Positions 35,359 through 54,123 of a stretch of 64,000 bases of DNA are shown here, piece by piece. The stretch lies in the NCBI GenBank assembly GCA_015075745.1, contig JABTTW010000002.1:446453-510452 (forward strand), read 5' to 3'. Position numbers and translations under genes: made by a program. This stretch comes from Planctomycetia bacterium. GTDB lineage: Bacteria; Planctomycetota; Phycisphaerae; UBA1845; UTPLA1. The notes under the pieces were generated by a model. That model saw only the letters and a program-made list of their open reading frames with translations, searched no databases and was not told the DNA's origin. Numbering within the stretch: position 1 is the stretch's first letter; the number at the start of each line of letters is the position of its first letter.

Positions 35359-38300
35359 ATGAAGCGCACTGAAAGTGATCCCATGAACAACAGCCGAAAA
35401 TCTCAACTCGCCTGGGGAATCGCACTGTTCCTGCTTACCGGCACACCGGCCTGGGCGCAGGTTCGCATCACGGAGTACATGTATTCGGGCGCCAACGGTG
35501 AGTTCATTGAGTTGACGAATCTCGGCGGAAGCGCCGTCGACCTGACCGGCTGGAGCCTGGACGACAGCACGAATACGCCGGGCTCATTAAGCTTGAGCGC
35601 CTTGGGAAGCGTTGCGGCAGGCGAGTCGGTGGTGATCACGGAGAGCGCAGAGGCGACCTTCCGTGCTGCGTGGAGCCTCGCGCCGACGGTCAAGATTCTG
35701 GACGGCTCGGGTGTCGTTGCCGGTCTGGGCCGAAATGACTCCATCTTCATCTATGACGCTTCGTCTGCGCTTGTCGATCGACTCGACTATGGCGATCAGA
35801 CATTTTCGGGATCGATCCGCACGCAGAACGCGAGCGGCTGGATCTGTACCCAGGGGCTCGGCGCGAACGATCCATTCCTCTGGGTCTTGTCCGTGGTTGC
35901 GGACGCACAGGGCTCCGTCGCCTCGACCGGCGCGGATGTCGGCAGTCCCGGCTCCTTTACGTCTGTCGCGTGTCCATCGGGGCCGACCGGCGCGTGCTGC
36001 ACCATGGGAAGCTGCGCCGACGGCGTCACGCAGGCCGATTGCGAAAACGGCGGCGGCGTCTATCAGGGCGACGCCTCGCTCTGTTCAGGTGTGACCTGTC
36101 CCCAGCCGTCCAACGCCCCGATTCGCATCACTGAGTACATGTATGCCGGTCTCGATGGCGAGTTCCTCGAACTCACGAACATCGGAATGAACCCCGTCGA
36201 TATGGCCGGCTTCAGCTTTGACGACAACACCAATCTTCCGGGCACCATCGACCTCACCAGCTTTGGAACGGTCGCCCCCGGAGAGTCCGTCATCATTACG
36301 GAAGCGGGCGAGGCCACTTTCCGAACCGCGTGGAACCTCGACCCCGGCATCAAGATCATCAGTGGCATCGCCATTGATGCAGCCCTGGGGCGGAGCGACA
36401 CCTTGAACATCTGGGACGGCTCGAATTCACTCGTTGACCGCCTTCAATACGGCGACCAGGACTTTCCCGGCACGATCCGCACGCAGAACTCCAGCGGCTG
36501 GGTCTGCGATGCCGGCCTCGGACAGAACAACCCGCACGAGTGGTTCCTTTCGTTCCCGGCGGACATTCAATCTTCCACGACATCAACCGGAGGAGACGTC
36601 GGCAGTCCCGGTTCATACACTGGGGTCGATTGTGCCAGCGGACCAATGGTCACCCTGACCGATCCTCCCTCGCTAATCAGCGTCGACGCACTGCCGTCGG
36701 TGACCGTCACCTTCAGTGCCGCCGTGTCGGGCGTTGTCGCGGGCAATCTCACTGTCAATGGTTCTCCGGCGACGAGCGTGTCCGGTTCGGGCGCGGGGCC
36801 CTACACGTTTTCGGGTTACGCGGTCCCGATTCCCGGGAATGTCGACATCAACGTCGCATCCGGCTCGATCGTTTCGTCGCCGGGCGGCGTTCCGTTCCTC
36901 GGCTATGGCTGGTCGCTGTCGGTCGGCATCCGCATCGTGATCAACGAGCTGAATTACCATCCGCACGATGTGCTTCATCCGACGCAGGACACGGAGTTCG
37001 TGGAGTTCTACAACGCCGGGGCCAGCCAGGTTGATTTGAGCGGCTGGGTGATTTCCGACGGCGTCGTGTTCACTTTCGCACCGGCGACATTTCTTGATCC
37101 GGCGTCATATCTGGTGATCGCCGTGAACCCGACCGCGCTTCAGGCTGCCACGGGCCATGCAGGCGCCCTCCAATGGACCTCCGGTGCACTGAGCAACGGC
37201 GGCGAGCGCGTCGCCATCCGGGACAGCTTCGGCAACCTGATGGACGAAGTGGAATACAGCGACGGCGGCGCGTGGCCGTCGCAGCCCGATGGCAGCGGTC
37301 CGTCGCTCGAACTGATCAATCCGAATCTGCCCAACCAGTACGCGGCCTCGTGGCGCGCTTCATCTGGAATCAACGGAACACCAGGGGCTCAGAACAGCGT
37401 TTTCAATGCCGCGCCCGCCCCCATCATTATTTCTCCGATGCACACCCCCTCGATTCCCGCGCCGAGTACGCCGGTGACGGTGACGGCCCTGGTCCTCGAT
37501 GACGGAATGTCTCCTCCCAACGTGACGCTCAACTATCGACAGGACGCCGTTTCTCCGGGGGCGTATCTGCAGACCCCGATGCTGGATGACGGGGCGCACG
37601 GCGACGGCGCAGCGGGCGATGACACCTACGGGGCCACACTGACGGGCCTCGCTAACGGTGAACAGTACGACTTCTATATCACGGCGGACGACGGCTCGGC
37701 GGTGAGCACATTCCCGCGGAATCACCCCACCGCGAACGGTTCGTGCAGCGCAGTCGGCTGCCAGGCCGATCAGAATCCAACCTGCGTTCTGTGTCAGACG
37801 CTCCTGTGCAAATTCTCGAATGAAACGCTGCCGACCGACTTCCCGGTATATCACATCATCGTGTCCCGGCCGAACAAGAGCACCCAGGAATCGCTGTCCT
37901 GCAATACAAGTCCGGTGGCGTTCGATCCTTGCAAGACCGAGTTCGACGCCACGTTTGTCGATGACACGGGGAAAGTGTATTACAACGTCACCGAACGATA
38001 TCGTGGGCAAAGCAGCATCACGCTCTTCCCCAAGTCGTACGCGGTCGACTTCGCCACCGACAACCAATTGCCCACGCCGCTTGGTTTCTCAGTTCGCAAG
38101 CTCATCTTGAACGCCAACCAGCCGACGCGGCAGAAGCTCGGCTTCGACATCTTCCGCGACGCCGGGATGCCGGCATCCGTTTGCGAATTCATCCGCCTGC
38201 GATTCACGGGCATCAATTACGACACGACGAACATCGGCTCCATCGGATTCAACGGCCTTTACGCCTGCATCGAGCGCGTCGATGGCGATTTCCTCAATTC

Positions 38301-41300
38301 TCAAGGCGGCGCCGTTGTACCGGACAGAGGCACCAGCTCAACGGGCAACCTGTATCGAGGCGAAAACACGGCCAACTTTGATTGGCGAGGAACCGCTCCT
38401 GGCCCGTATCGCGTCAATTTGTGGGGAAGAAACGGCTACTCAAAGGAAAACAACGAAGAGCTGGATGATTTCACGGACGTCATCAATCTCTGCGACGTCT
38501 TGAACAACACGCCCGCCGGCTCTTACGTCGCAACGGTGGCTGGGGCGGTGGACGAGGACGAATGGTGCCGCTACTTCGCCCTTCACAACATCCTCAGCAA
38601 CAAGGAAGGCGGCATCTATCGCGATACGGGCGATGACTACTACCTTTTTATGAACGAGGCTGGGCATGTCGACGGCCCTGACGCGAAGTTCATCACCTGG
38701 GATACCGATTCCGTTTTTCGCGACGCCTACGAAACCATCTGGCGCACGGGTAATAACAACAACACGATTGCCGCGGTTCGCAATTTTCTCCGACACAACG
38801 CCTTCGCGCCGATCTACGTCAAGGACATCAACGACCTGCTGGCGACCAATCTCTCCATCGCCAATTTCAATGCACGCATCGATACGATGCCGAATGCGGC
38901 TTTCTTCACGTCCGGCGGCAGCGCGGCCCTCCCCGCCACAAGGCAACAGTTCAAGGACTGGTTCGCGGGCAGAGTGACGTCGATCAATAACGAGACCATT
39001 GACGCCCTCACCCTGACGGGCATCCCAGTTTCCCCGTATACAAACGCGAATCCGATACTTGCCTTAAGCGGCCAACTCAATCAGGCCGGCACCCACAACG
39101 TCACGGTCAATGGAGTCCAGGCCACCTTCAGCGTGTACCAGGGCAACTGGTCGTACAACTACAACCTCTATCCGGGCCTGAACACGATCACGGTCAAGTC
39201 GTTTGACCGGCAGGCACAGGAAACGGCGAGCATCACCAGCACCGTTCTCTACGATCCTCCCCCGGCGACGCCGGGCCTGCGACTGACGGCGCCGACGCGC
39301 ATGGTCGACAGCAAGACGCTGACGCTCCGCGCGGACATCCTCGATTCTTCCGGCAACATTGACTGGCGAACGTGCACGCAACTCGGCACGGTCTCCGCGA
39401 CCCGCCTCTCGGACGGCAGCCCGGTCCCGACCTCGATCACCATCTTCGAAACACTCAACGGCGGCGCCGGCGGAGGAACCCCTCCAGCGGACTCGATTCG
39501 TTTCTACAACGGCGTCGGCAGTGTCTCGATCACACTGGACCAGGGAGCGGGAACGCCACCGGGAGATATTCTCATAACTGTCACCGTCGGCCCCATGATC
39601 GTGTCGAAGATCGTCAACGTTCTCGACGGCGATAATCCCGCGCTGTTCAGGAACCTTTCCGGGACGCTTACCGGCGCCGGATTGTTATGGGGACCGAGTG
39701 ACGGCGTCATTCATCTGACGGGCACCGTCACGGTCAATAGCGGCAACACGCTGACCATTCTGCCGGGCACCTTGATCATGGTTGATGCCGGACCGGTCAA
39801 CGACGGCACGGCAATCATCCCAACCGGCGGCGGGCAGATCAGCGCACCGGGTTCGCGCGCCGAGCCGATTTACTTCTTTGCCACCAATGGTCCCTCGGCC
39901 ATGGTCCTTCCGCAGAATGCGCAGAACAATAGTCCATCGTGGCGCGGCATCTACCATCAGGGCAATGGAAACTCTACCTACTCATTTGTGTTCTTCACCG
40001 GCGCTGGCAACGGCATCGTCTCCAGCCATCCGCGACCGCCTATTATTCGCGCGGAGAATTCGCACATACTCACGTTTAATGACTGCATCGTCGCGGACTG
40101 TCCGGGCATGGGAACTTCCGCCCTGGGCGGCTCCAGCGGCACTTACACATTCCGCCGTTGCCTCTTCTCGCGCGTCGGCATCGGCGGCGAGTGGCTCGGC
40201 TCGGGACTGACGCTGCTCATCGAAGACTCCTGGTTTACGCGCATTGGTCGCGCGCCTGAGCCGAACGGCGTGGACGGCGACATCCTGCACCTGGATCGCC
40301 CGGGCAACTCATACATCATTCGCCGAAGCGTGTTGACGGACTGCGGCGATGACATGATCGATCACAGCACGGGCGCCCAGCCGGTCGTTGAAAACTGCCT
40401 CTTATACGACTGCCGCGACAAGGTCGTGAGCATCGGCCCGTTGGTGAATGGCCCCGAGGCCACCATCACCATGACAAACTGTCTCATCTTCAACGGCCCG
40501 GGCGGCCTTCGCTGCAACCAGGCGCCGGCCATCCTGACAAATTGCACCCTGGGGGCGGGCACCAACGTAAACGGTCAGGGCTGCACCGGCACCTCGATTC
40601 AGCGTTGTATCCTCTGGACCAACAGCGCGAATACATGCTGCGGAGATGTTGACTACACCATCGTCGGGAATGCGGGACACCTCGAGTGCGGCACCGGCAA
40701 CTTGTCCACCGACCCGTTATTCGTCAATACGACCTGCAACTATGAACTACAGGCCGGTTCGCCGGCCCTCACGGCGGGCCCATCCGGCGACAGGATCGGC
40801 TGGCTCGGTTTCCCGGTTCCGCTCAACGGCTGCATTGACAACGGAGATTGCGACGACGGCGATCCCTGCACCACCGATTTCTGTAACAACGGCATCTGCG
40901 AATACACGTCTGTTCCCGGTTGTTGCCACATGGACGCTGATTGCGACGACGGCAGTCTCTGCACCGTCGACGCATGCGTCAATAACGTCTGCTCCAACAC
41001 ACCCACGGACTGCAGCGACGGAGACGCCTGCACGACGGACACCTGCAACCCACTGACCGGGTGCGAACACGCCGCCGCCAATTGCGACGACGGGAATCCC
41101 TGCACGGTCGATTCCTGCGACCCGATGCTCGGCTGTCAGAACATCCCGATTAACTGTCCGAAAGGGCATACATGCAATCAAACCAATGGTCAGTGCGAAA
41201 TCCTGCCGATCACCGTGGTCTTCCAAAACGGTCTCAACGGTTACGCCGATACTCAGGATACCTACTTCCAAGAGTCGGTTCCGACTGCGATCAATGGCGA

Positions 41301-44298
41301 TCTCGAAACCATCCGCTGGGATACCTCTAGTGGTTCGCCGGCGGGACCGGTCTATATGGTTGTTCGCTTTGACAACATCTTTGGAACGGGGCCCGGGCAG
41401 ATTCCGACGACCGCAACCATCCAATCGGCCACGCTGACCTACACGATCGGCGGCGATGCCAATGCGACCGGCAATGACGGTGATCTACGAGAGGTGCTCG
41501 TCAACTGGGATGAAGCCACAACCACCTACAACAACTTCGGCGGCACCGCCGGTGTTCAGGCGGGCGATCATACGGGCACCAGCCTCGCCGTTATGCCCGG
41601 CAGCCCGCTGGGCGCGAAGAATATCGACGTCACGAGCAGCCTCGCAACCTGGCTTGCCGCCCCGGCGACGAACCTGGGATGGATTGTGCTCCCGATAAGC
41701 ACCGACGGCGTTCAAGTTCGCTCCAGCGAGTTCGTCGCGACGCCGGTGGATCGGCCGACCCTTTCTGTCACGTTCCTGCCGATCAGTTGCGCAAACGATG
41801 GGGACTGTGACGATCTCGATCCGTGCACGATCGACGCCTGCGTCAATGACGCCTGTGAGAACACGCCCATCAACTGCGACGACATGGATCCATGTACGTC
41901 CGACGTCTGCAACGGTGGAATCTGTGATAACACGCCCATCATCGGCTGCTGCGAAGTCGATGGTGAATGCGACGACGGCAGCGTCTGCACGACCGATTCC
42001 TGCGTGAACAATATCTGTCAGAACACGCCGATCAACTGCGATGACGGCGACGCCTGCACGGAGGATACGTGTGACCCGATCAACGGTTGTCAGTACGCCG
42101 TAACAAGCTGCGACGACGGTGTTGATTGCACCGACGACTCCTGCGATCCCATGCTCGGCTGCCAGAACGTGAGCAACTGTCCGATGGGGCTGACATGCAA
42201 TACCGGCAACGGCCAGTGCGAGTCGCAGCCGGTGATGTTGATGTTCCAGGACGGCGTGTCGGGATACGACGCGACGGTGGACACCTTCATTCACGCCGGC
42301 AGTCCGACGGCCAACAACGCCGCGGCGACGGTTCTGGTTTGCGACGGTGCGATGCCGGCGGCGGCCGATGATCGCCAGGTCCTGCTTCGCTTCGACAGCA
42401 TCTTCGGCGACAACATCGATCAGATTCCACTGGGCTCGACGATCCAGTCGGCATCACTGACGGTCATGATCACCAACGCCAGCCTCACCGGCGCCTCGCT
42501 GCATCGCATGACGCAGGCCTGGCTCGACACCAACAACTGGAACACCTTCAACGTCAATGGCGACGGCATCCAGCCGGGCACCGAATGCGAAGCCGCGGCC
42601 GACGTGAGCAGCTTCCTCAACGCGACCAGCTCGCATTCCATCGACGTCACGGCGAGCCTGGTGGCATGGTCCGCCGGTCAGACGAATAACGGCTGGGTCT
42701 GGATCAACAACGGGGACGACTCCTGGCAGTTCAACTCCAGCGAGTTCGGCACCGTCGGCAGCCGGCCCAAGCTGAGCGTCACCTTCCTGCCGCCCACCGG
42801 CTGCATGAACGCCGGCGACTGCGACGACGGGAATCCCTGCACCGACGACGCCTGCAACATGGGGATGTGCGAATACACGAACAACTCTGCCGCCTGCGAC
42901 GACGGCCTCTTCTGCAACGGGCTCGAAACGTGCGATCCTCAGTTGGGTTGCGTGGCGGACCAGCCGTGTCAGCCGGGCGAGCAATGCGATGAGGCGGCCG
43001 ACCTGTGTCGTCAACCGCTGATGAGTTGCCAGATCACAGATCCGATGCCGTCGGCAGGCGGAAGCACACGCCTCGAGGTATTCCTTTCCGATGTGCTGAG
43101 CGTGCTAGGCTATGAAACCGAGATCAGCATCGTTCGCACCTCCGGCACGGGAACGGTGACCGTCGGTTGTCCGGGAGGGGTCGCCGTTGACGACGACCGT
43201 CCCGATTTCATCTTCTTTGGCGTCCCGGATGTCTTCCCGGCCGCGAACTGCGCTGCCAAGACGGCCGCCGCCGCGCGCTTGTCCGGCGGCACAAGCGTCA
43301 CCAGTGCGCCGGCTTATCTTTCGGAGTATGCCCTGACGGTCTCGCCGGACGCGTCCCCGGGCAGCACGTTTGAAATCTCAATCGTGCCCTCCCCCGGTGC
43401 CGACCTGACCAATCCGAACGGTCAGCCCATTCCGTTCCAAGTGGCGCCTGCCTGCGTCCTGACGGTCGTCGGTGGGTGCGCGGCGCCTGCCTGCCTGACC
43501 GTGCAGATCACGATACCCGGGCTCGCGGCGGGCCCTGTCGATCGCGATGTCGAGTGCACGCTGACCCGTTGCGGTTCTTCACCCGTGACGGTCACCGAGA
43601 CGGTCTTATTCACGCCGAACGCGGGCAATGGGATTGGCGCATTGACGCTGACCAATGTTGATCCGTTGACGACCTGGGTTTCGGTTCGGGAAGGACACAC
43701 CCTCAGCAGATTGGCGGCCGTGGACTTCAGCGGCGACAACGAGGACACCGTGTCGGTCTCGCTCGTATCCGGCGATCTCCAGACAGCCGTGATGCCACAG
43801 GACGACATCGTCGATATCCTCGACTTTGCGATTCTTTCGTCCCGGTTCAACACGACCGTGACCGACTGCGTGACCGGCGACCCCGAGGATTGCTCGCTGG
43901 GCGCAGACGTGACCGGCGACGGAGATCAGGACACAGTCGATTTCACGGCTCTCCAGATATATTTCTTCCAGGTCAGCGATCCACAGGATGCCTGTCCAGC
44001 CTTCGCGCCGCCGGGCAAACCGGGCCGCGAACCGCTGGCGCAGGATGATTTGAAATCGACTTCAAACAAGGCGCCGCCCCTGGCGATTCCGCGTGGGTTG
44101 GGCCGCATCGGCACAAGCCGATTGCGCGCGATGGATGCATCGCTCGTATCGGCTGATGAAAACGGCGACGGTATCGTCGACGCCGGGGACATCAGAGAAT
44201 TTTTCCGTCAGCATGGGATAGCCATTCTGCCGGCATTTGAGTTGAAGCTGCGGTCGATGGAGGCCGCTGAGAATAGTTTGCAACAGGACAGCCGCTAA
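35359..44298 (+). CDS. Giant secreted modular protein (about 2980 aa): 3 lamin-tail domains, CotH kinase-like domain, right-handed beta-helix, 3 Cys-rich modules alternating with 2 DNRLRE-like modules, cohesin-like module, dockerin-like C-terminal cassette
   Basis: Signal peptide ...SRKSQLAWGIALFLLTGTPAWAQ (alternative start ATG 35383). LTD motifs are RITEYMYSGANGEFIELTNLG..VDLTGWSLDD (35461), a paralogue at 36121, and IVINELNYHP...EFVEFYNAG..VDLSGWVISDG (36931). CotH blocks are KLILNANQPTRQKLGFDIFRDAGMP and YFALHNILSNKEGGIYRD..DYYLF. The Cys-rich repeat is C.DGDPCT.D.C....C. EF-hand loops are DVTGDGDQDTVD and DENGDGIVDAGD. Confidence 0.9.
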   Translation: MKRTESDPMNNSRKSQLAWGIALFLLTGTPAWAQVRITEYMYSGANGEFIELTNLGGSAVDLTGWSLDDSTNTPGSLSLSALGSVAAGESVVITESAEATFRAAWSLAPTVKILDGSGVVAGLGRNDSIFIYDASSALVDRLDYGDQTFSGSIRTQNASGWICTQGLGANDPFLWVLSVVADAQGSVASTGADVGSPGSFTSVACPSGPTGACCTMGSCADGVTQADCENGGGVYQGDASLCSGVTCPQPSNAPIRITEYMYAGLDGEFLELTNIGMNPVDMAGFSFDDNTNLPGTIDLTSFGTVAPGESVIITEAGEATFRTAWNLDPGIKIISGIAIDAALGRSDTLNIWDGSNSLVDRLQYGDQDFPGTIRTQNSSGWVCDAGLGQNNPHEWFLSFPADIQSSTTSTGGDVGSPGSYTGVDCASGPMVTLTDPPSLISVDALPSVTVTFSAAVSGVVAGNLTVNGSPATSVSGSGAGPYTFSGYAVPIPGNVDINVASGSIVSSPGGVPFLGYGWSLSVGIRIVINELNYHPHDVLHPTQDTEFVEFYNAGASQVDLSGWVISDGVVFTFAPATFLDPASYLVIAVNPTALQAATGHAGALQWTSGALSNGGERVAIRDSFGNLMDEVEYSDGGAWPSQPDGSGPSLELINPNLPNQYAASWRASSGINGTPGAQNSVFNAAPAPIIISPMHTPSIPAPSTPVTVTALVLDDGMSPPNVTLNYRQDAVSPGAYLQTPMLDDGAHGDGAAGDDTYGATLTGLANGEQYDFYITADDGSAVSTFPRNHPTANGSCSAVGCQADQNPTCVLCQTLLCKFSNETLPTDFPVYHIIVSRPNKSTQESLSCNTSPVAFDPCKTEFDATFVDDTGKVYYNVTERYRGQSSITLFPKSYAVDFATDNQLPTPLGFSVRKLILNANQPTRQKLGFDIFRDAGMPASVCEFIRLRFTGINYDTTNIGSIGFNGLYACIERVDGDFLNSQGGAVVPDRGTSSTGNLYRGENTANFDWRGTAPGPYRVNLWGRNGYSKENNEELDDFTDVINLCDVLNNTPAGSYVATVAGAVDEDEWCRYFALHNILSNKEGGIYRDTGDDYYLFMNEAGHVDGPDAKFITWDTDSVFRDAYETIWRTGNNNNTIAAVRNFLRHNAFAPIYVKDINDLLATNLSIANFNARIDTMPNAAFFTSGGSAALPATRQQFKDWFAGRVTSINNETIDALTLTGIPVSPYTNANPILALSGQLNQAGTHNVTVNGVQATFSVYQGNWSYNYNLYPGLNTITVKSFDRQAQETASITSTVLYDPPPATPGLRLTAPTRMVDSKTLTLRADILDSSGNIDWRTCTQLGTVSATRLSDGSPVPTSITIFETLNGGAGGGTPPADSIRFYNGVGSVSITLDQGAGTPPGDILITVTVGPMIVSKIVNVLDGDNPALFRNLSGTLTGAGLLWGPSDGVIHLTGTVTVNSGNTLTILPGTLIMVDAGPVNDGTAIIPTGGGQISAPGSRAEPIYFFATNGPSAMVLPQNAQNNSPSWRGIYHQGNGNSTYSFVFFTGAGNGIVSSHPRPPIIRAENSHILTFNDCIVADCPGMGTSALGGSSGTYTFRRCLFSRVGIGGEWLGSGLTLLIEDSWFTRIGRAPEPNGVDGDILHLDRPGNSYIIRRSVLTDCGDDMIDHSTGAQPVVENCLLYDCRDKVVSIGPLVNGPEATITMTNCLIFNGPGGLRCNQAPAILTNCTLGAGTNVNGQGCTGTSIQRCILWTNSANTCCGDVDYTIVGNAGHLECGTGNLSTDPLFVNTTCNYELQAGSPALTAGPSGDRIGWLGFPVPLNGCIDNGDCDDGDPCTTDFCNNGICEYTSVPGCCHMDADCDDGSLCTVDACVNNVCSNTPTDCSDGDACTTDTCNPLTGCEHAAANCDDGNPCTVDSCDPMLGCQNIPINCPKGHTCNQTNGQCEILPITVVFQNGLNGYADTQDTYFQESVPTAINGDLETIRWDTSSGSPAGPVYMVVRFDNIFGTGPGQIPTTATIQSATLTYTIGGDANATGNDGDLREVLVNWDEATTTYNNFGGTAGVQAGDHTGTSLAVMPGSPLGAKNIDVTSSLATWLAAPATNLGWIVLPISTDGVQVRSSEFVATPVDRPTLSVTFLPISCANDGDCDDLDPCTIDACVNDACENTPINCDDMDPCTSDVCNGGICDNTPIIGCCEVDGECDDGSVCTTDSCVNNICQNTPINCDDGDACTEDTCDPINGCQYAVTSCDDGVDCTDDSCDPMLGCQNVSNCPMGLTCNTGNGQCESQPVMLMFQDGVSGYDATVDTFIHAGSPTANNAAATVLVCDGAMPAAADDRQVLLRFDSIFGDNIDQIPLGSTIQSASLTVMITNASLTGASLHRMTQAWLDTNNWNTFNVNGDGIQPGTECEAAADVSSFLNATSSHSIDVTASLVAWSAGQTNNGWVWINNGDDSWQFNSSEFGTVGSRPKLSVTFLPPTGCMNAGDCDDGNPCTDDACNMGMCEYTNNSAACDDGLFCNGLETCDPQLGCVADQPCQPGEQCDEAADLCRQPLMSCQITDPMPSAGGSTRLEVFLSDVLSVLGYETEISIVRTSGTGTVTVGCPGGVAVDDDRPDFIFFGVPDVFPAANCAAKTAAAARLSGGTSVTSAPAYLSEYALTVSPDASPGSTFEISIVPSPGADLTNPNGQPIPFQVAPACVLTVVGGCAAPACLTVQITIPGLAAGPVDRDVECTLTRCGSSPVTVTETVLFTPNAGNGIGALTLTNVDPLTTWVSVREGHTLSRLAAVDFSGDNEDTVSVSLVSGDLQTAVMPQDDIVDILDFAILSSRFNTTVTDCVTGDPEDCSLGADVTGDGDQDTVDFTALQIYFFQVSDPQDACPAFAPPGKPGREPLAQDDLKSTSNKAPPLAIPRGLGRIGTSRLRAMDASLVSADENGDGIVDAGDIREFFRQHGIAILPAFELKLRSMEAAENSLQQDSR
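43486..44295 (+). repeat. Paralogous C-terminal cassette, copy 1 (beta-sandwich + split dockerin-like EF-hand pair)
   Basis: CLTVQITIPGL...WVSVREGHTLSRL...SGDLQTAVMPQDDIVDILDFAILSSRFNTTVTDCVTGDPEDCSLGADVTGDGDQDTVDFTALQIYFF...DENGDGIVDAGDIREFFRQHGI. Aligns along its length with 45970-46791 and 51961-52780. Confidence 0.8.
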
Positions 44299-44415
44299 GT
44301 CGGCTTCTTCGTTGCCGAATTGTTGAGAGTTTTTGAAGTTGACCGCTCTTGACAATAGAGCGGGCAACACTGGGCCATGTAGCTGTTATTGATGTCCTGA
44401 AAGGGGAAATACGTC

Positions 44416-46794: not shown

Positions 46795-46823
46795 TAATGC
46801 CCGGTTCTTGGGAGTAAGTACCT

Positions 46824-47639: not shown

Positions 47640-47734
47640 TCTCGTGGATCGTGTCGCCGCGCGACAAAACGTGTCACGCCGCGGCCGGGTCGTCAAGAGT
47701 TTGCTTATCATGCGAGGGTCAAGGGAGTGGCAAT

Positions 47735-50700
47735 ATGCCCGCAGGTGGTGCTCAGGTTGCGAAGGATGCTCGACATTTGATTCCCCATCGCCGCTGGTTG
47801 CCGCGGTTTCTTGCCGCGCTGGTAACTGCTGCGCTTTGCTCGACATCATTTGCCAATGTGGTCATCACCGAATTGATGTACCACCCGCTCAACGACAACG
47901 AGGCGCAAGAGTTCCTCGAAATTCAAAATACCGGGGCCTCCGCCGTTTCTCTCACCGGTTGGTGCGTCGAGGGCATTGACTACTGTTTCACCGCCGGAAC
48001 GACCATCGCACCGGGCGACTACATGCTCCTCGCGAAGGACGCCGCCCAATTCCAGACCGCCTACGGTTTTCCTCCCGACTTTGTTTACACAGGCCAGCTC
48101 AGTAACAGCGGTGAGCGCATCGCGATCAAGAACGCTTCCGCCGTCGTCCAGGATGAGGTCGAGTACTCCGACGTGGGTTTCTGGCCGACAAAGGCCGATG
48201 GCCAGGGACCATCCCTGGAAAGAATCGATCCGTTGCTCAACGGCAACACCCCGCGCAATTGGCGCGCCTGCATCGCCGGCCCGGGCCACACGGCCAATGC
48301 GGTGAACAGCGTCAACGCCGTCGGGCTTCCCCCGTGGATCAGCGAGATCACTCACACTGCCGATCCGTCCGCCATGGCGACGATCACCGTCACCGCCCGC
48401 ATCGAAGACGCGACAACAAACAGCTTCTACTACAAGATCGGTTTTACCGCCGAGGTCGCCGGCGTTATGTTCGATGACGGCGCGCATGGCGATGGCGCGG
48501 CAGGCGACGGGGTCTTCGGCGCGGAAATCCCCGGCCAGCCCGTTAGCACGCTCATCCGCTACCGGATCACAGCCAGCGGCCCCACCGGCCAGATGAGCTA
48601 CCCGCGCACCGATGACACCATCACCTACGCCGGTCTCATGGTGCAGGACCCCGGCCTCGTCACGGACCTGCCCGTGTTTCACTGGTTCATGGACCCGGCT
48701 GCCTACGCCGCGGCGATCGCCCACAAGCTGACGGATCAACTTGAGCCCGCCGTCTTCGCCTATGACGGCGTCGTCTATGATGGCGTGATGGTGCGCGTGC
48801 GCGGTCAGACATCTCGCCAATGGCCGAAGAATCACTGGAAGTTTTACATGCCGCAGGGGCACGATTTCTTCGCCCCCGGCCTGTTCGCGCTGCCGGTTGA
48901 CCAGTTCAATCTCCAGTGCAATTACTCCGACAAGGCCTACGTCCGCGAGATACTGGCTTACGAATCATTTCGTGACTCCGGCAACCCGTCGAACCAGGTT
49001 TTCCACGTCCGGCTCCAGCAGAACGGCCAGTTCTTCGGTCTGTACAACTTCCTTGAGTCCATGGATGAAGACTACATCGCACGAAACAAACTCGACACGA
49101 ATGCCGCGTGGTACAAGGCCGACGACGATTGCCGTTTTCGGTCGCTGGCTCAGCTTCCAAACGAATATCAGAAGGAACAGCGCCTGACCGAAGACTATTC
49201 CGACCTCTTCGCCCTGCTCGACGGCATCAACAACCTCACCGGCCAGGCAAAGACGGACTTCATTTTTGACAACGTCAACATCCCGGCCATGCTCAATTTC
49301 CTGGCCGCCCAGTGCATCGTTCACAACAACGATCACGTCGCCAAGAACTACTATCTCTACCGCGACACCGAGGGCACCGGTCGCTGGACATGCCAGACCT
49401 GGGACATGGACCTGACCTTCGGAAGGAATTTCGGCGCAGGCGGCGGCGTCCTCAGCGACGGAATCTGGGCAGACGACGACGCGCCCCATCCGAGCAATAC
49501 GCTTGTCTCACCCAGCCATCCGCTCTTCGGCGATACAAACCACCGCAAATGGGACGACCTCTGGAATCGGCTCATCAACGTCGTGCATGCCGATCTTAAC
49601 ATTCGCGCGATGTATCATCGCCGGCTTCGAACACTGGCCGATGAGCTCCTTCAAGCCGGTAGATACGAAGATCGCATCGACGAACTCGTCTCCCACATCG
49701 GCCCCGAGGCCGTTCTGGACGTTGCGAAGTGGGGCCAATATGGCCAATCTCAATCGCTCGCCACGGCCGTCAACATTCTCAAGAACGACTACCTCGCCGT
49801 CCGCAGAATCCACCTGCTCACGAACCATCGTGTCCCCGGCGAGATTCCCGAGGCCCAATCATTTCACCCGAAAATCGTCATCAACGAGCTGATGTATAAC
49901 CCCGCCGTCTCCGGCGATCACGAATTCATTGAGCTGTACAATCCATCTCCGACCGAGGCCGTGGACCTGTCCGGATGGCGGCTCGACGGCGTCGCACTCG
50001 TCATCCCGCCGGGATCGGTCATTCTCCCCAATGGATATATGCTCGTGGTCCGAGGCGACGTTCAGTTCCGCACACAATACGGATCGGGCAAATTCGTAGC
50101 GGCCCAATACTCCGGAAATCTCGACGGCGGAGGAGAGACCCTCACGCTGCGTCACAAGGACGGTACTGTCATCGATACAGTCACTTACGACGACGCGACC
50201 CCCTGGCCGACAAGTCCGGACGGCGGCGGCTACTCCCTGGAGTTGATCGATGCCTCCCAGGACAACGACCGAGTCGGCAACTGGGCGGCCAGCGCTTCTC
50301 CCGGCGGCACGCCCGGGCTGCCCAACAGCATGGCCGGCTTCACGCCGACCGTACCGCCGATTTTCATCAACGAGGCCCTACCGGATAACGAGTCGAAGAA
50401 TCGGGACGAGGCCGGACAGTTCGATCCCTGGGTCGAGCTTTACAACGCCGGAGAGGCGACCGTCGAAATCGGCGGAATGTATCTGACCAATACCTATGGA
50501 AATCCGACCCTTTGGCAGATTCCCCCCGAAACTCAGATTTGCGGCGGAGAGCACCTGCTCATCTGGACGGATGGTTCAGTCGGCGAGGGCCCGCTTCACG
50601 CAAACTTCACGATCGGGTTGACGACCGGCTCGGTTGGTCTTTACTCATCCACCGGGCACATTATCGACTACTTGAACTATGCCAACGTCCCTTCCAACAT

Positions 50701-52783
50701 CTCCTTTGGCCGGCTTCCCGACGGCGGTCATCAGCTGCTCCAATTTGCCATCGTCACGCCGGTCGCCCCGAATGACGGCGACGCAACGCCGATCATCCTG
50801 AATGAATACAACGCCGTCAGACCCACCGGACTCCTCAAGGACAACGGCTCCGACACGTTCTGGGGCCGTGTCCTCGCCAATGGCGGCGATTGGTTTGAAA
50901 TGGTCATCACCCGGGACCACACCGACATCAGAGGATGGCAGTTGGTCGTCAGTGACAACACGGGCATCGGGACGCCGCTGACGCTGACCCTGACCAATGA
51001 CCCGATCTGGTCAGACCTGCGCAGAGGAACCTTGATCACCGTCTCCGAAGACCTCCCCGATGACGTCTCCTACAGTCCGGCCTCGGGCGACTGGTGGATC
51101 AACGTTCGCGCGGCCAACGCCGGGACCGGCACATACATCACGGCCGCCGACTTCGAAGTGTCTCACACCAACTGGCAACTGACCATCAAGGATGAAGTCG
51201 GAGTCACGATGTTCGGTCCGGCCGGCGAGGGAATCGAGCCGGTCAGTGGGATTGGCAACGACGAAGTCTTCAAGCTTGAGCAGGATCCCGGCGCATTTAT
51301 TCACCCCAAGTCCGACTACAACGACGGAACTTCCAGCACTTTTGGTTCCCCAAACATCTATTCCGCCGGCACCGTGACACAGGACTTCACGGTGCTGCGA
51401 GGCAGTTTCATGCCCTGCATGCTTCCCGCCGAATGTGACGACGGCAATCCCTGTACCATCGACGACTGCGTCGACGGCGAATGCGTCAACACGCCAATGT
51501 CACCCTGCGACCAGCTCAGCCTCAACTGGCCGGAGGCAACGGGGCCGGAAATTAAGGCCTGTCCGGGCTCGCAAATCGTCCTGACACTCGATGTCTCCGG
51601 CCTGCACGCGCCCATCAACGGTGTCCAGGCGATTCTGAACTACGACACAAGTCTCCTGAGCCTCGTCAGCATGACGCCCGGAGACGGCGGAGCGTCGCCC
51701 TGGAATTCCGCCGCCGAAGTCTTCGAAGACGACACCGACGGACTGATCAAGTACGCCGTGATTCTCCTCGCGACAAGCTCTCAGGCGGACGCCACGGTGG
51801 CCACGTTGACGTTTGACGTTCTCGCTCCCGGCGGCAACATAAACCCCAGCCGGGTCGCCTTCTCAACGACCTGCCTGCCCGTTCGCAACAAGTTGACGAC
51901 CTTCGATAACCAGACCATCTCCCCTGTCACCATCGATTCCGATCCCATCACCATTGGACCGCGCATCGACGTGGCCCTTCAGATTCAGGGACTCGGCTTC
52001 GAGGTCACGCGGGACGTGACGTTTACGATAACGAACTGCACCCAAGTGCTGCAGGTCATCACCACCCCCGTCACGTTTGGGCCGGGAGGCCTGGCCGAAC
52101 TTGTTCTGACCAATGTCGATCCGACAGCCGAGTGGATTGCCGCGGTCGAAGGACACACGCTTCAGTCCCGATTGCCGATTGCCTTCACCACCTGTTTCGC
52201 AAGTGCCCACTTTGTGGCCTCTGATCAATTGATCTCCGGCGACCTCCGCACCAGTGGAGTGCCGCAGGATAACCTCATCGACATCCTCGACTATGCCATT
52301 CTCGCGGCACGCTGGAATACCATGGTCACCGATTGCCCGATCGGACTTCCCGCGGATTGCGGCTTTGGCGCCGACGTTAATGGTGACGGCCAGCAGGGGA
52401 CCATTGACTTCACGGCGCTTCAGATTAACTTTTTCCTCGCCGGGGATTCGGCCGCCGATTGTCCGCCGCCGACCCCGCCGCCGTCGACCGGCCCCAAGGG
52501 TGGGACGCCGATCGCGGACGCCGGCGTTGCATCGGAGCCGATCCGACCGAGGGGACCGTCGGCCGTACGGACCGGCAAGCGCTCACTGTCCGTGGCGGAG
52601 GCAGTCAGGCTCAATCCCCGCCTGGGTGTTGCCGATCAGGATTCGGACGGCATGATTGACGCGAAAGACGTCCGCGCCTTCGCCGAGAAACACGGGATCG
52701 TGATGCCCCGGGAAGCATGGGATCGCCTGTCCGATGCTGATCAGGGCGTGGGAAGTCCTGCCGTCGAAAACTCGGCTCGATAA
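47735..52783 (+). CDS. Giant secreted modular protein (about 1680 aa): LTD, CotH kinase-like domain, 3 further LTDs, Cys-rich module, cohesin-like module, dockerin-like C-terminal cassette
   Basis: ATG 47735 follows AAGGGAG, and the upstream in-frame extension overlaps the previous gene. Signal LPRFLAALVTAALCSTSFA. LTD motifs VVITELMYHP...EFLEIQNTG..VSLTGWCVEG, IVINELMYNP..EFIELYNPS..VDLSGWRLDG, IFINEALPDN and IILNEYNAV. CotH blocks VRVRGQTSRQWPKNHWKFYMP, NYSDKAYVREILAYESFRDSGNPS and NYYLYRDTEGTGRWTCQTWDMDLTFG. Cohesin block INGVQAILNYDTSLLSLVS. Confidence 0.9.
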   Translation: MPAGGAQVAKDARHLIPHRRWLPRFLAALVTAALCSTSFANVVITELMYHPLNDNEAQEFLEIQNTGASAVSLTGWCVEGIDYCFTAGTTIAPGDYMLLAKDAAQFQTAYGFPPDFVYTGQLSNSGERIAIKNASAVVQDEVEYSDVGFWPTKADGQGPSLERIDPLLNGNTPRNWRACIAGPGHTANAVNSVNAVGLPPWISEITHTADPSAMATITVTARIEDATTNSFYYKIGFTAEVAGVMFDDGAHGDGAAGDGVFGAEIPGQPVSTLIRYRITASGPTGQMSYPRTDDTITYAGLMVQDPGLVTDLPVFHWFMDPAAYAAAIAHKLTDQLEPAVFAYDGVVYDGVMVRVRGQTSRQWPKNHWKFYMPQGHDFFAPGLFALPVDQFNLQCNYSDKAYVREILAYESFRDSGNPSNQVFHVRLQQNGQFFGLYNFLESMDEDYIARNKLDTNAAWYKADDDCRFRSLAQLPNEYQKEQRLTEDYSDLFALLDGINNLTGQAKTDFIFDNVNIPAMLNFLAAQCIVHNNDHVAKNYYLYRDTEGTGRWTCQTWDMDLTFGRNFGAGGGVLSDGIWADDDAPHPSNTLVSPSHPLFGDTNHRKWDDLWNRLINVVHADLNIRAMYHRRLRTLADELLQAGRYEDRIDELVSHIGPEAVLDVAKWGQYGQSQSLATAVNILKNDYLAVRRIHLLTNHRVPGEIPEAQSFHPKIVINELMYNPAVSGDHEFIELYNPSPTEAVDLSGWRLDGVALVIPPGSVILPNGYMLVVRGDVQFRTQYGSGKFVAAQYSGNLDGGGETLTLRHKDGTVIDTVTYDDATPWPTSPDGGGYSLELIDASQDNDRVGNWAASASPGGTPGLPNSMAGFTPTVPPIFINEALPDNESKNRDEAGQFDPWVELYNAGEATVEIGGMYLTNTYGNPTLWQIPPETQICGGEHLLIWTDGSVGEGPLHANFTIGLTTGSVGLYSSTGHIIDYLNYANVPSNISFGRLPDGGHQLLQFAIVTPVAPNDGDATPIILNEYNAVRPTGLLKDNGSDTFWGRVLANGGDWFEMVITRDHTDIRGWQLVVSDNTGIGTPLTLTLTNDPIWSDLRRGTLITVSEDLPDDVSYSPASGDWWINVRAANAGTGTYITAADFEVSHTNWQLTIKDEVGVTMFGPAGEGIEPVSGIGNDEVFKLEQDPGAFIHPKSDYNDGTSSTFGSPNIYSAGTVTQDFTVLRGSFMPCMLPAECDDGNPCTIDDCVDGECVNTPMSPCDQLSLNWPEATGPEIKACPGSQIVLTLDVSGLHAPINGVQAILNYDTSLLSLVSMTPGDGGASPWNSAAEVFEDDTDGLIKYAVILLATSSQADATVATLTFDVLAPGGNINPSRVAFSTTCLPVRNKLTTFDNQTISPVTIDSDPITIGPRIDVALQIQGLGFEVTRDVTFTITNCTQVLQVITTPVTFGPGGLAELVLTNVDPTAEWIAAVEGHTLQSRLPIAFTTCFASAHFVASDQLISGDLRTSGVPQDNLIDILDYAILAARWNTMVTDCPIGLPADCGFGADVNGDGQQGTIDFTALQINFFLAGDSAADCPPPTPPPSTGPKGGTPIADAGVASEPIRPRGPSAVRTGKRSLSVAEAVRLNPRLGVADQDSDGMIDAKDVRAFAEKHGIVMPREAWDRLSDADQGVGSPAVENSAR
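51961..52780 (+). repeat. Paralogous C-terminal cassette, copy 3
   Basis: RIDVALQIQGL...WIAAVEGHTLQSRL...SGDLRTSGVPQDNLIDILDYAILAARWNTMVTDCPIGLPADCGFGADVNGDGQQGTIDFTALQINFF...DQDSDGMIDAKDVRAFAEKHGI. Confidence 0.8.
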
Positions 52784-52926
52784 AGGCGCCATCGCCCGCT
52801 GCCGAGCGGCATTCAGACTCGTAATTCAGGCCCATTTGCACATGGGGTTGCTCGGGGGATCGCGTAAGATTATTCCATAATCGGCGGTCGCCTGTGATAA
52901 CTGCCGCAGGATGGGGGGAGGGGTTT

Positions 52927-54123
52927 GTGAAGCGGTTAACGACAAGGCTATTAGCCCTCGCTGCAGGGCTCGCCGCGACTGCCGGCACGCTCGCACCAGT
53001 ACGCGGCCAGGCCGTGATGACCTGCGAACTGTCGAGCATCACAGCCGTTCCCGGCAGCGAACTGTCGATGCACACGTTACTTCAGAACGCGGCCAACGTC
53101 CGTGGCTATCAGACCAGAATTTCCATCATTCGCCTCAGCGGCGCCGGCACACTCAGCGTTCCCTGCCCCGGCGGAAACGGGGACTCCCACGTCAGCGTTA
53201 ATACGCTTCGGCCCGACTACATCTTTTTCGGCCTCTCCTCGACAAACACGGCGACGAACTGTCCGGGCAAAGCTGCCGGCGCTTTATACAACGCCGGCGG
53301 AGTGACGATCGGCACTACGCCGGCATACCTTTCAACCTATGAATTGGAAGTCTCTCTCGACGCGACTCCAGGCAGCACATTCCAGATTTCAATCGAGCCA
53401 TTTCCGCTGTCCAGCATCTCGTTGATGGGCGGCGGATTTCTTCCCTTCAAGGCGGATTCGCCCTGCATTCTGACCGTCCTGGCTTCAGAGTCGCTGACAT
53501 TCGATCTCGATTTCTGTACCACCTGCGTTCCCACTTCATCGGTCGTTCGCGTGCCGCTGCGTGTTTCAGGCCTCCTGGAGCCCGTCAACGGCGTACAGGC
53601 TCTCTTCAGCTACGATCCTTCGATCCTGACGCTCACCGGCGCCACGGTCGGAGACCAGATGGGCTCGCCCTGGGACACGGCCTCGCTCGTCCATCTAAAC
53701 GGCAACGCGGGTAATGGGGTCATCGCCGTCGGCCTGAACGGCAGTTCCTCGCAGTCCGACGCGACCGTCGCCACCCTGCTTTTTGACGCAATCGGCCCCG
53801 GAGAAACCTCCGTCGATTTCCGCGCCGCTTCGCCCCCGTTCGCAACCAAGATCACCTCGGTGACCAATGAGGTCATCGTCCCGAACGAAATCGACTCGCC
53901 AACCATCGTCTCCGGCGCTCATTCCAAGGGCGACGTCAACGGCGACGGCCAGCGCGACGGCCTCGATGTTCAGCAATTCGTCGACACGATTCTCAATCCG
54001 GGCGCCGCAACAGCAGGCGAGCTCTGTGCCGGCGACTTGAGCGGCGATGGAAGCGTGACCGGAGATCAGGACGTCCCCCTCTTCGTCGATTGTCTCGTCA
54101 ACGAAATCTGCGTTTGCCCATGA
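52927..54123 (+). CDS. Secreted double cohesin-like + compact dockerin-like protein (about 400 aa)
   Basis: GTG 52927 follows a GGGGGGAGGGG run. Signal KRLTTRLLALAAGLAATAGTLAPVRGQA. The first module is paralogous to 43021-43470 (RPDYIFFG...TPAYLSTYELEVSLDATPGSTFQISI). The second is cohesin-like (VNGVQALFSYDPSILTLTG...ATVATLLFDAIGPG). C-terminal dockerin GDVNGDGQRDGLDVQQFVDTIL...GDLSGDGSVTGDQDVPLFVDCLV. Confidence 0.85.
   Translation: MKRLTTRLLALAAGLAATAGTLAPVRGQAVMTCELSSITAVPGSELSMHTLLQNAANVRGYQTRISIIRLSGAGTLSVPCPGGNGDSHVSVNTLRPDYIFFGLSSTNTATNCPGKAAGALYNAGGVTIGTTPAYLSTYELEVSLDATPGSTFQISIEPFPLSSISLMGGGFLPFKADSPCILTVLASESLTFDLDFCTTCVPTSSVVRVPLRVSGLLEPVNGVQALFSYDPSILTLTGATVGDQMGSPWDTASLVHLNGNAGNGVIAVGLNGSSSQSDATVATLLFDAIGPGETSVDFRAASPPFATKITSVTNEVIVPNEIDSPTIVSGAHSKGDVNGDGQRDGLDVQQFVDTILNPGAATAGELCAGDLSGDGSVTGDQDVPLFVDCLVNEICVCP

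Follow-up and report, generated by a model that had tools for sequence, protein, structure and literature searches.

Positions 35359–54123 hold an operon-like cluster of an uncultured Planctomycetota bacterium, in which five consecutive + strand ORFs (P1–P5) probably encode a non-cellulolytic cohesin–dockerin assembly of the 'planctosome' type. This is the best reading of the locus because the dockerin and cohesin identities and the synteny hold. An earlier note on the window, the whole stretch of 64,000 nucleotides that was analysed, had described a five-gene cohesin/dockerin locus at this site. That observation is confirmed and the locus is real; the interpretation placed on it is partly supported. 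The genes are as follows.

35359 (or 35383)–44298, + strand, P1, 2979 aa; gene callers choose the start at 35383
44416–46794, + strand, P2, 792 aa
46824–47639, + strand, P3, 271 aa
47735–52783, + strand, P4, 1682 aa
52894 (or 52927)–54123, + strand, P5, 409/398 aa
63067..63879, + strand, possible sixth component, a secreted protein of 270 aa with a C-terminal P3-type dockerin-like segment

The ORF coordinates agree with the earlier description of consecutive same-strand genes with gaps of 29–143 nt (117, 29, 95 and 110/143 nt from P1 to P5), and the true start of P3 probably lies later than 46824. All five products carry the N-terminal hydrophobic segment expected of the signal peptides claimed for them, and a sequence scan of P1–P5 finds no TM-like segment beyond it. 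SLH, TM, lipobox and PEP-CTERM anchors were not found in P1–P5, which counts against the preferred explanation, and none of the five is an anchoring scaffoldin of the cellulosome style (SLH or sortase signal). The possible sixth gene lies 9 kb downstream of the cluster. NCBIfam holds no model for P2, P3, P5, a 240-aa downstream protein or the 63067 dockerin protein. A scan for sigma-70 promoters and terminators gives sites that are fewer than, or no more than, those in shuffled sequence, and no tRNA or Rfam family was found within the window. Horizontal acquisition, as an island or mobile element, was rejected, as GC is uniform (0.59–0.63) and housekeeping genes flank the locus; a defence or phage system was also rejected, with nothing suggestive of either.

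P1 is a giant protein in which a signal peptide is followed by three LTDs, a CotH domain, a beta-helix, a Cys-rich/DNRLRE array, the CohB module and a C-terminal module termed XDoc-tail. P4 runs from a signal peptide through an LTD, a choice_anch_X motif, CotH, two further LTDs, CTDC and CohA to its own XDoc-tail.

35452..37278, + strand, P1 LTDs, three (aa 32–149, 252–368 and 521–640; Pfam LTD 169 bits in three stretches; jackhmmer)
37996..38889, + strand, P1 CotH (aa 880–1177; Pfam 80.6 bits)
40303..40626, + strand, P1 right-handed beta-helix repeats (aa ~1649–1756; PF13229)
40828..43008, + strand, P1 Cys-rich Dicty_CTDC repeats with two interleaved DNRLRE/CBM96 modules (Pfam, NCBIfam)
43012..43470, + strand, P1 CohB beta-sandwich (aa 2552–2704), a homologue of the first P5 domain
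43489..44265, + strand, P1 XDoc-tail, comprising X-module, dockerin, linker and Ca-loop/helix tail
47846–48187, 49850–50209 and 50426–50686, + strand, P4 LTDs, three (Pfam)
48791–49786, + strand, P4 CotH (Pfam 173 bits)
51563–51958, + strand, P4 CohA (Pfam Cohesin)
51959–52744, + strand, P4 XDoc-tail

Both CotH domains reported earlier are recovered at these Pfam scores. The P4 domain matches Bacillus cereus CotH (5JD9) with an E of 2e-14, and its motif HNNDH..KN..WDMD aligns with the catalytic Asp, the Asn and the metal-binding Asp of that structure, so that all D/N/D positions are kept and the kinase looks catalytically intact from its sequence. The catalytic loop of the P1 domain is altered (NKE..DD vs NND..KN in P4) and its WDTD motif is retained; this CotH appears divergent, and its kinase activity is uncertain. 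Six of the seven LTDs that had been counted are detected, three each in P1 and P4; a fourth LTD that had been proposed in P4 (aa ~1056–1239) has no match to Pfam at E<=10 or to a locus-specific LTD profile.

The remaining cargo is largely as first described. Scanned alone, the P1 segment thought to be a pectate-lyase-type beta-helix reaches 28.2 bits with Beta_helix PF13229 (cut-off 25.9), which supports right-handed beta-helix repeats; no relative was found for it among PDB sequences. The supposed Cys-rich knots correspond to the seven Dicty_CTDC matches that Pfam gives over P1–P5. The DNRLRE-like sandwiches (P1 aa 1966–2138 and 2304–2475) score 93.5 bits with NCBIfam DNRLRE_dom in two stretches. 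Pfam names the same two modules CBM96, a carbohydrate-binding family, so the statement that no classical CBM is visible was not quite right. Catalytic families of the GH, PL and CE classes are absent from P1–P5 in Pfam and NCBIfam, and the claim that no glycoside hydrolase is visible therefore stands. CBM96 was established from an alginate lyase, and its founding member is alginate-specific (PMC9971899). As a whole, the cargo (LTD, CotH, beta-helix, CBM96/DNRLRE, PKD/Ig and Cys-rich modules) points to adhesion, matrix building or the capture of acidic polysaccharides, not to cellulose hydrolysis.

P2, P3 and P5 combine cohesin-like modules with a dockerin. P2 has a signal peptide, CohA, PKD/Ig repeats (PKD at aa 189–264) and an XDoc-tail; P3 has a signal peptide, the cohesin-like module CohC and a dockerin; and P5 has a signal peptide, CohB, CohA and a dockerin.

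44554–44910, + strand, P2 CohA cohesin (aa 47–165)
45967–46773, + strand, P2 XDoc-tail (aa 518–786)
46974–47432, + strand, P3 CohC cohesin-like module
47439–47636, + strand, P3 dockerin
53008–53490, + strand, P5 CohB
53509–53916, + strand, P5 CohA cohesin
53911–54120, + strand, P5 dockerin

The two small proteins are thus, as proposed, cohesin plus dockerin almost alone (Coh-Doc in P3, Coh-Coh-Doc in P5). By their domain content, P3 is a putative small adaptor and P5 a putative adaptor scaffoldin with two cohesin-like modules.

The three large proteins P1, P2 and P4 share a C-terminal module of ~280 aa, with pairwise identities of 43–50%, that was absent from the earlier note, as was its X-module. 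An AF2 model of the P2 XDoc-tail (pLDDT 87.4, pTM 0.81) has as its top five Foldseek matches chains that are all XDocs of type II complexes (4u3s_B, 2b59_B, 4fl4_L, 5k39_B and 5g5d_B), each with a probability of 1.0 over ~178 aligned columns. The four single XDoc chains have TM values of 0.60–0.65, against 0.34 for 4fl4_L, a longer Coh-X-Doc chain; sequence identity to PDB XDocs is only 14–16%. The module is accordingly modelled as an X-module–dockerin unit, with an Ig-like X-module directly N-terminal to the dockerin; in P4, this gives a cohesin-X-dockerin arrangement. The first Ca loop of the dockerin is atypical. The unit continues into a flexible linker and then an additional Ca-loop/helix tail of ~65 aa that is without structural precedent. 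A T9SS-type CTD was rejected as the identity of the module, since fold and position differ.

P1–P5 together contain six cohesin-like modules and five dockerins. Dockerin_1 scores are 17.7 bits in P1, 31.1 in P2, 20.6 in P3, 16.5 in P4 and 22.4 in P5 (gathering cut-off 22.9), which places P2 above the cut-off and P3 and P5 at its border. Pfam Cohesin (cut-off 24.1 bits) scores 33.1 in P4, 22.0 in P5 and 13.4–18.5 in P2; several relatives, at 31–44 bits, are likewise above the cut-off. Cohesins make up 9 of the 12 weak PDB matches to a CohA profile. The best Foldseek match of a P5 AF2 model, built from a seven-sequence alignment and with a pLDDT of only 52, is the type II cohesin dyad 3l8q (E 1.5e-7). 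As single queries, P5 and the P4 C-terminus match nothing significantly among PDB sequences. CohC of P3 aligns with CohA at an hhalign probability of 88%, and CohB does so at 23%; hhalign finds nothing between CohB and CohC, and neither profile finds anything among PDB sequences. The CohA modules of P2, P4 and P5 are true cohesins, CohC is, on profile similarity, a remote cohesin homologue, and CohB of P1 and P5 is no more than a candidate, only weakly cohesin-like.

These profile and structure comparisons do not show the putative cohesins and dockerins adopting unrelated folds: CohA is a cohesin and the C-terminal module matches XDoc. The Ca-loop motif D.N.DG.....D ascribed to every product occurs in all five. 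The NGVQ....YD..L.L block, likewise ascribed to all, is found in P2, P4 and P5, has diverged in P3 and is missing from P1. The idea that every product carries both halves of a plug-and-socket pair is not secure for P1, whose sole candidate cohesin is CohB.

Proteins with an XDoc-tail module are rare: when 1.84 billion representatives were searched exhaustively by HMM, 510 matched, 198 of them below 1e-10, or ~200 protein clusters in 1.8 billion. The module lies at the C-terminus of the full-length proteins listed, which span 245–3503 aa, and conservation is far higher in its dockerin part than in the cargo. All 76 genomic loci belong to Planctomycetota or to unclassified uncultured-bacterium MAGs, mostly labelled Phycisphaerae, and genomes carry several copies (at least 15 in CSMAG_1437). 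Among 32 family members scanned with Pfam, 14 have Dockerin_1, eight have Cohesin and one has Peptidase_M6; no glycoside hydrolase, PL or CE appears among the 25 commonest families listed. Laminin_G_3, BNR and PL4-type CBM-like domains occur in relatives.

A linkage scan of 79 sources, the window included, finds cohesin modules within 10 kb of an XDoc in most loci (CohA in 54/79, CohC in 34/79). The proteins encountered include 34 with CohA fused directly to XDoc, ten of Coh-Coh-Doc type and ten of Coh-Doc type. At least seven related MAGs or contigs (L007, L008, L011, L012, L013, L014 and L016) show the P2/P5/P3/P4/P1-like genes in synteny, in keeping with a conserved five-gene order; all relatives of the cluster are MAGs. 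Cluster and module family alike are conserved in the genomes scanned and confined there to a Planctomycetota lineage.

In the proposed assembly, XDocs and simple dockerins would, going by homology, dock Ca2+-dependently onto cohesins of other subunits. Docking of this kind would join the five products to each other and to further dockerin proteins with genes elsewhere, giving a network outside the cell or on its surface, which could branch or concatenate because nearly every subunit has a plug and a socket. If the analogy with CipA holds, CohA would accept the simple dockerins of P3, P5 and the 63067 protein, and the XDocs would bind another cohesin type, CohB or CohC. A more far-reaching version, which we regard as unlikely, is a dedicated extracellular assembly system, present throughout the class Phycisphaerae and resting on a type-II-like XDoc and its Ca-binding tail, with subunits concatenating into a mechanically stable surface lattice or fibre that in this lineage recruits an active secreted CotH kinase and forms a phosphorylation-matured matrix, comparable to spore-coat assembly. 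Head-to-tail concatenation would be possible because nearly every subunit has both a cohesin and a dockerin, as in the 34 Coh-X-Doc proteins.

The products could also be independent secreted adhesins or surface proteins, in which cohesin- and dockerin-like modules are only Ca-stabilised structural or ligand-binding units and no docking occurs between subunits. Several module scores do lie below the Pfam cut-offs, CohB is doubtful, and adhesion-type cargo (PKD, Ig, Laminin_G, disintegrin, CTDC) predominates in the family; moreover, according to Peer et al. (2009), as relayed in PMC6461901, mutual binding has never been demonstrated for most non-cellulosomal cohesin and dockerin modules. The genomic linkage of plug and socket modules throughout a bacterial class, the retention in synteny of proteins made only of Coh and Doc (P3 and P5) and the far stronger conservation of the XDoc dockerin part than of the cargo nevertheless make this a minority possibility.

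Two further readings are improbable. The XDoc-tail might act chiefly as a C-terminal signal that sorts or anchors a lineage-specific secretome to the envelope, following the logic of a T9SS CTD or PEP-CTERM and with no cohesin plug. Its position at the extreme C-terminus of >100 otherwise unrelated full-length proteins, its many copies per genome, the lack of any other anchor in P1–P5 and the Arg cluster that often ends the tail in relatives would fit such a signal, but the three tails in the window are not basic, the beta-sandwich does not form the very C-terminus, where T9SS CTDs have theirs, the best structural matches are XDoc chains of cohesin complexes, and Dockerin_1 matches in 14/32 members accompany co-localised cohesin genes. 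There is similarly little chance that the locus encodes a cellulosome analogue that degrades acidic polysaccharides of algae or EPS, with the P1 beta-helix as a lyase or hydrolase targeted by CBM96. The pairing of that helix with two CBM96/DNRLRE modules, the alginate lyase origin of CBM96 and the Laminin_G_3, BNR and PL4-type domains of relatives speak for it; against it, PL, GH and CE are absent from P1–P5 and from the commonest families listed, the beta-helix lacks a sequence relative among solved structures, and the cargo is mostly non-enzymatic.

X-dockerin is the strongest known class of cohesin–dockerin connection. If the non-cellulolytic assembly is real, this connection reaches beyond Gram-positive cellulolytic anaerobes to diderm, non-cellulolytic Planctomycetota, and the 'planctosome' idea, so far sketchy, gains a concrete basis in the conservation of the gene cluster and in a C-terminal module that is diagnostic. 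To our knowledge, the role of LTD-CotH proteins in cellulosomes has stayed unexplained for 20 years. Such proteins are here tied to cohesin–dockerin systems in a second, unrelated lineage, a recurrence that suggests a cargo function in the assembly itself and not in cellulose breakdown. The modules of the locus could also serve as orthogonal protein-assembly parts.

One of the closest known systems is the type II cohesin–XDoc pairing of clostridial cellulosomes, as between the CipA XDoc and SdbA/OlpB/ScaC in C. thermocellum or the ScaA XDoc and ScaB in A. cellulolyticus. Shared features are a C-terminal Ig-like X-module fused to a two-repeat dockerin, adaptor proteins joining cohesins with a dockerin and, in P4 and 34 relatives, the cohesin-X-dockerin order of CipA CohI9-X-DocII (4fl4). 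Unlike the clostridial system, the locus belongs to a planctomycete and not a Gram-positive anaerobe, is without glycoside hydrolases, CBM3, SLH or a sortase anchor, and has an XDoc with an atypical first Ca loop, an extra linker and a ~65-aa tail. A true cellulosome was rejected, given the lack of CAZyme catalytic domains.

The contrast with cellulosomes was nonetheless overdrawn in the earlier note, because the C. thermocellum cellulosome includes CotH/LTD dockerin proteins, namely CseP Cthe_0044 (CotH) and Cthe_0239, an LTD-LTD-Fn3-CotH-dockerin protein (PMC6083626); cellulosomes are recognised to contain CotH-dockerin proteins (PMC12484212). These, like the anaerobic-fungal CotH-dockerin proteins, resemble P1 and P4 in joining LTD(s) and CotH to a dockerin. 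They differ in using type I or fungal dockerins within cellulolytic complexes, whereas the CotH proteins of the locus have an XDoc and their own cohesin (in P1, the candidate CohB), with no cellulases in the locus. Like the Bacillus spore-coat kinase CotH (5JD9/5JDA), P4 CotH retains the catalytic Asp and Asn as well as the Asp that binds metal; unlike it, this domain is secreted as part of a multidomain protein of 1682 aa in a non-sporulating planctomycete. The toxin complexes of C. perfringens are an example of cohesin and dockerin use outside cellulosomes. As with the non-cellulosomal modules of Peer et al. (2009), plug and socket are employed here outside plant cell-wall degradation; those modules are usually scattered and single, whereas the locus is a conserved multi-gene cluster with a class-wide XDoc family.

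The earlier note, which knew of no characterised system with such a composition, drew the novelty too broadly, since LTD/CotH dockerin proteins occur in the cellulosome and a 'planctosome' was proposed in 2019 (PMC6083626, PMC6461901). The latter hypothesis describes a Phycisphaerae LTD protein with a cohesin and Doc-HYR-Coh adaptors (Andrei et al. 2019, ISME J, PMC6461901). The locus shares with it a Planctomycetota/Phycisphaerae host, an LTD protein carrying a cohesin, small Coh+Doc adaptors and a non-cellulolytic character, and one distant relative of the cluster (L040) has a Cohesin-HYR protein resembling its adaptor. Components of the 'planctosome' model are P domains of proprotein convertases, TSP3 repeats, HYR, and M12B/M14 peptidases that bear dockerins, whereas the locus has CotH, beta-helix, CBM96, CTDC and PKD; Pfam finds no peptidase or HYR domain in the window, and HYR appears only in the distant relative. 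Neither the XDoc-tail module nor the conserved cluster is part of the 'planctosome' description (PMC6461901), and both systems are known from computation alone. The locus is thus less unprecedented than first claimed and is a further form of the hypothesised 'planctosome'.

The five consecutive + strand genes at 35359-54123, described in an earlier note as a locus of secreted cohesin/dockerin proteins, are a real feature, and that observation holds with minor corrections. Gene boundaries match those called independently on identical metagenomic contigs, and the gaps between the genes are, in order, 117, 29, 95 and 110 or 143 nt. Each of the five proteins, P1 to P5, begins with a hydrophobic segment of the signal-peptide type; no later transmembrane-like anchor, SLH, lipobox or PEP-CTERM signal was found in any of them. 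In the architectures below, CohA, CohB and CohC are three classes of cohesin-like module, Doc is a simple dockerin, and XDoc-tail is a unit of X-module, dockerin, linker and Ca-loop/helix tail. The Pfam cut-offs are 22.9 bits for Dockerin_1 and 24.1 bits for Cohesin.

P1, 35359 (or 35383)-44298, + strand: ORF of 2979 aa, cargo-CohB-XDoc-tail; Pfam LTD (three), CotH, Dicty_CTDC (seven), CBM96 (two), weak Dockerin_1
P2, 44416-46794, + strand: ORF of 792 aa, CohA-PKD-XDoc-tail; Pfam PKD, Dockerin_1 (31.1 bits, above cut-off), weak Cohesin
P3, 46824-47639, + strand: ORF of 271 aa, CohC-Doc; Pfam Dockerin_1 (20.6 bits)
P4, 47735-52783, + strand: ORF of 1682 aa, cargo-CohA-XDoc-tail; Pfam CotH (173 bits), LTD (three), Cohesin (33.1 bits, above cut-off), CTDC, weak Dockerin_1
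P5, 52894 (or 52927)-54123, + strand: ORF of 409 or 398 aa, CohB-CohA-Doc; Pfam Dockerin_1 (22.4 bits), Cohesin (22.0 bits)

Missed by the earlier note is a C-terminal module of ~280 aa that internal BLAST reveals in P1 (aa 2687-2970), P2 (aa 502-786) and P4 (aa 1387-1655), at 43-46% identity (43-50% in a MAFFT alignment). The P2 copy, modelled with confidence from a 33-sequence alignment (pLDDT 87.4, pTM 0.81), runs from a beta-sandwich through a helical Ca-loop pair and a disordered linker rich in Pro to a helix-loop-helix with a long helix. Its top five Foldseek matches in the PDB (4u3s_B, 2b59_B, 4fl4_L, 5k39_B and 5g5d_B) have a probability of 1.0 over ~178 aligned columns; the four single XDoc chains score TM 0.60-0.65, and 4fl4_L, a longer Coh-X-Doc chain, scores 0.34. 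Because all five are type II XDoc chains, the module is, by its predicted structure, an X-module-dockerin unit. Across P1, P2 and P4, conservation is far stronger in its dockerin part than in the remaining protein.

Beyond the XDoc lies a tail of ~65 aa with the consensus ADLNGDGVVDxxDIRAFAxxHxLxLLPEFxxKLxxLE, which no known XDoc covers and for which the XDocs in the PDB offer no structural precedent. In P2 (aa 729-786, 46600-46773), and at the corresponding positions of P1 and P4, it consists of a lone third EF-hand-like Ca loop and a long helix, modelled in P2 at pLDDT >90. The tail ends in an Arg cluster in many relatives.

The cohesin-like modules were separated by locus-specific profiles into CohA (the N-terminus of P2, directly before the XDoc in P4, and the second domain of P5), CohB (before the XDoc in P1 and the first domain of P5) and CohC (P3). 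CohA is, by its sequence, a true cohesin: Pfam Cohesin exceeds its cut-off in P4 and in relatives (31-44 bits in the latter), and nine of the 12 weak matches of the CohA profile to PDB sequences are cohesins. CohC, judged by profile comparison, is a remote homologue of CohA (hhalign probability 88%, E 3e-6), and Cohesin is its sole recurring weak Pfam match. CohB reaches 23% against CohA in hhalign, with no match to CohC and none in the PDB; Pfam Cohesin matches two of 14 CohB members (E 0.008). A low-confidence model of P5 (pLDDT 52) has as its best match the type II cohesin dyad 3l8q (E 1.5e-7), spanning both domains. Almost every subunit combines a plug with a socket, CohB being a candidate cohesin. 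The XDoc model and the CohA Pfam matches speak against unrelated folds for the segments first read as dockerins and cohesins, and the synteny in relatives speaks against scattered genes.

Pfam, NCBIfam and a scan of P1 aa ~1649-1756 alone, which matches Beta_helix (PF13229) at 28.2 bits, agree with the original domain list, which is essentially right. Six lamin-tail domains are detectable, three each in P1 and P4, rather than the seven counted; the NGVQ...YD motif ascribed to all five proteins occurs in P2, P4 and P5 only. The DNRLRE-like sandwiches are present (DNRLRE_dom in NCBIfam, two copies, 93.5 bits) and belong to CBM96, a carbohydrate-binding family whose founding module is alginate-specific (PMC9971899). 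Aligned to Bacillus cereus CotH (5JD9), the P4 CotH domain keeps the catalytic Asp/Asn and the metal-binding Asp; the P1 domain has an altered loop. The cargo speaks for a role in adhesion, in forming a matrix or in capturing acidic glycans. NCBIfam also places a choice-of-anchor X motif (choice_anch_X, NF041940) in P4 at aa 245-266 (~48467-48532, 30.8 bits). The motif is weak in P1 (aa 740-768), and NCBI links NF041940 to proteins with alternative C-terminal anchors.

An exhaustive profile search of 1.84 billion representative proteins returned 510 XDoc-tail matches, 198 of them below 1e-10 and 103 below 1e-30. Full-length matches (245 to 3503 aa) carry the module at the extreme C-terminus. 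Among 32 full-length members, Pfam detects Dockerin_1 in 14 and Cohesin in eight. Their cargo is mostly of binding or adhesion type (CTDC, PKD, disintegrin, Laminin_G_3, Ig_7, CBM96 and LTD), enzymes are few (metallophosphatase, peptidase M6), and the 25 commonest families listed include no glycoside hydrolase. When one genome per GTDB species was scanned, 76 loci came up, every one in a MAG whose label is Planctomycetota or unclassified uncultured bacterium; most belong to Phycisphaerae or Phycisphaerales, and none comes from a cultured isolate. Genomes hold several copies, with at least 15 in CSMAG_1437.

Cohesin genes adjoin XDoc genes across these loci: of 79 sources including the window, 54 contain CohA, 34 CohC and 19 CohB. 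The same sources contain 34 proteins with CohA fused directly to XDoc-tail, 10 CohB-CohA-Doc proteins and 10 CohC-Doc proteins. The five-gene cluster is kept in relatives, with the orders P2-P3-P4-P5 (locus L011), P1-P2-P5-P3-P4 (L014), P2-P5-P3-P4(-P1-like) (L012, L016) and P2-P5'-P3-P4-P5-P1-like (L007, L008), and orthologues of P3 and P4 are 48% to 90% identical. More distant Phycisphaerae MAGs (L040 at 455-3913; L028, L029, L034 and L050) keep a Coh/Doc cluster of five or six genes that lacks LTD and CotH; each of its proteins has a cohesin and a dockerin-like C-terminus.

A genomic island was considered and rejected: the GC content of the cluster matches that of its flanks, where the genes are of ordinary chromosomal kinds (GT87, carbamoyltransferase, alanine dehydrogenase, a sigma-54 two-component pair, HI0933-like and DUF58/BatA). 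The locus is thus resident in the chromosome. The window contains no tRNA and no Rfam family. The nearby features are:

30652-34146, - strand: divergent 1164-aa protein with Ig I-set and MopE/TSP3-like Cys/Asp repeats
34147-35358: 1.2-kb intergenic region between that gene and P1
54440-55162, + strand: 240-aa protein without a family; N-terminal TM segment, coiled coil
63067-63879, + strand: sixth secreted protein, 270 aa, with a C-terminal P3-type dockerin-like segment

The divergent protein lacks cohesin and dockerin modules; the hydrophobic helix and RRRR cluster at its end resemble a PEP-CTERM anchor, although no PEP motif is obvious. The intergenic region, around which GC falls to 0.57 (34001-36000 bin), is presumably the cluster's regulatory region; no sigma-70-like promoter was found upstream of P1 in the part scanned, 34500 onward. 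The 240-aa protein lies downstream of P5 only in the closest relatives and is thus probably outside the system. The sixth secreted protein matches no Pfam or NCBIfam family; given its P3-type dockerin, the simple dockerin type seems to be used by proteins outside the cluster. Two proteins of relatives have the P3-type simple dockerin only, one carrying LTD (L022, 1946-3823, - strand) and one a BNR/sialidase-like propeller (L032, 11084-14131, - strand), hinting at a wider cargo set.

Beyond the established folds, common XDoc-tail, genomic linkage, synteny and plug-plus-socket make-up of almost every subunit, homology to cellulosomal systems suggests that the subunits would be linked outside the cell by Ca-dependent docking. 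The XDocs of P1, P2 and P4 would probably compete for one socket. By analogy with CipA of Clostridium thermocellum, CohA may take simple dockerins, those of P3 and P5 as well as those of other proteins such as the one at 63067-63879, and the XDoc may bind a cohesin class other than CohA. Most subunits being bivalent, the networks could branch or form chains.

The C-terminal Coh-X-Doc order of P4 is that of CipA (PDB 4fl4). Lacking both CAZyme cargo and an SLH anchor, the locus differs from a cellulosome proper; its predicted modules are those of a general cohesin-dockerin system, and its modelled C-terminal module has the XDoc fold. The earlier note knew of no characterised system of this composition, which overstated its uniqueness. 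The C. thermocellum cellulosome includes Cthe_0239 (LTD-LTD-Fn3-CotH-dockerin) and CseP (CotH-dockerin) (PMC6083626), and the structural or regulatory role of cellulosomal CotH proteins is unclear (PMC12484212). The planctosome, a hypothetical assembly proposed in 2019 from freshwater Phycisphaerae genomes, combines a cohesin-bearing LTD protein with a Doc-HYR-Coh adaptor and with peptidases that carry dockerins (PMC6461901). The window differs from the planctosome as drawn in having no HYR domain and no peptidases; one protein of the distant Phycisphaerae clusters carries a Cohesin-HYR pair and recalls the published adaptor. The interpretation as a non-cellulolytic assembly system is partly supported. 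Cohesin-dockerin assemblies, non-cellulosomal ones included, are already known as a kind; judging from the literature searched, three elements are new: a protein family across the class marked by a type-II-like XDoc with an extra tail, the conservation of the five-gene cluster, and the CotH/CBM96/beta-helix cargo.
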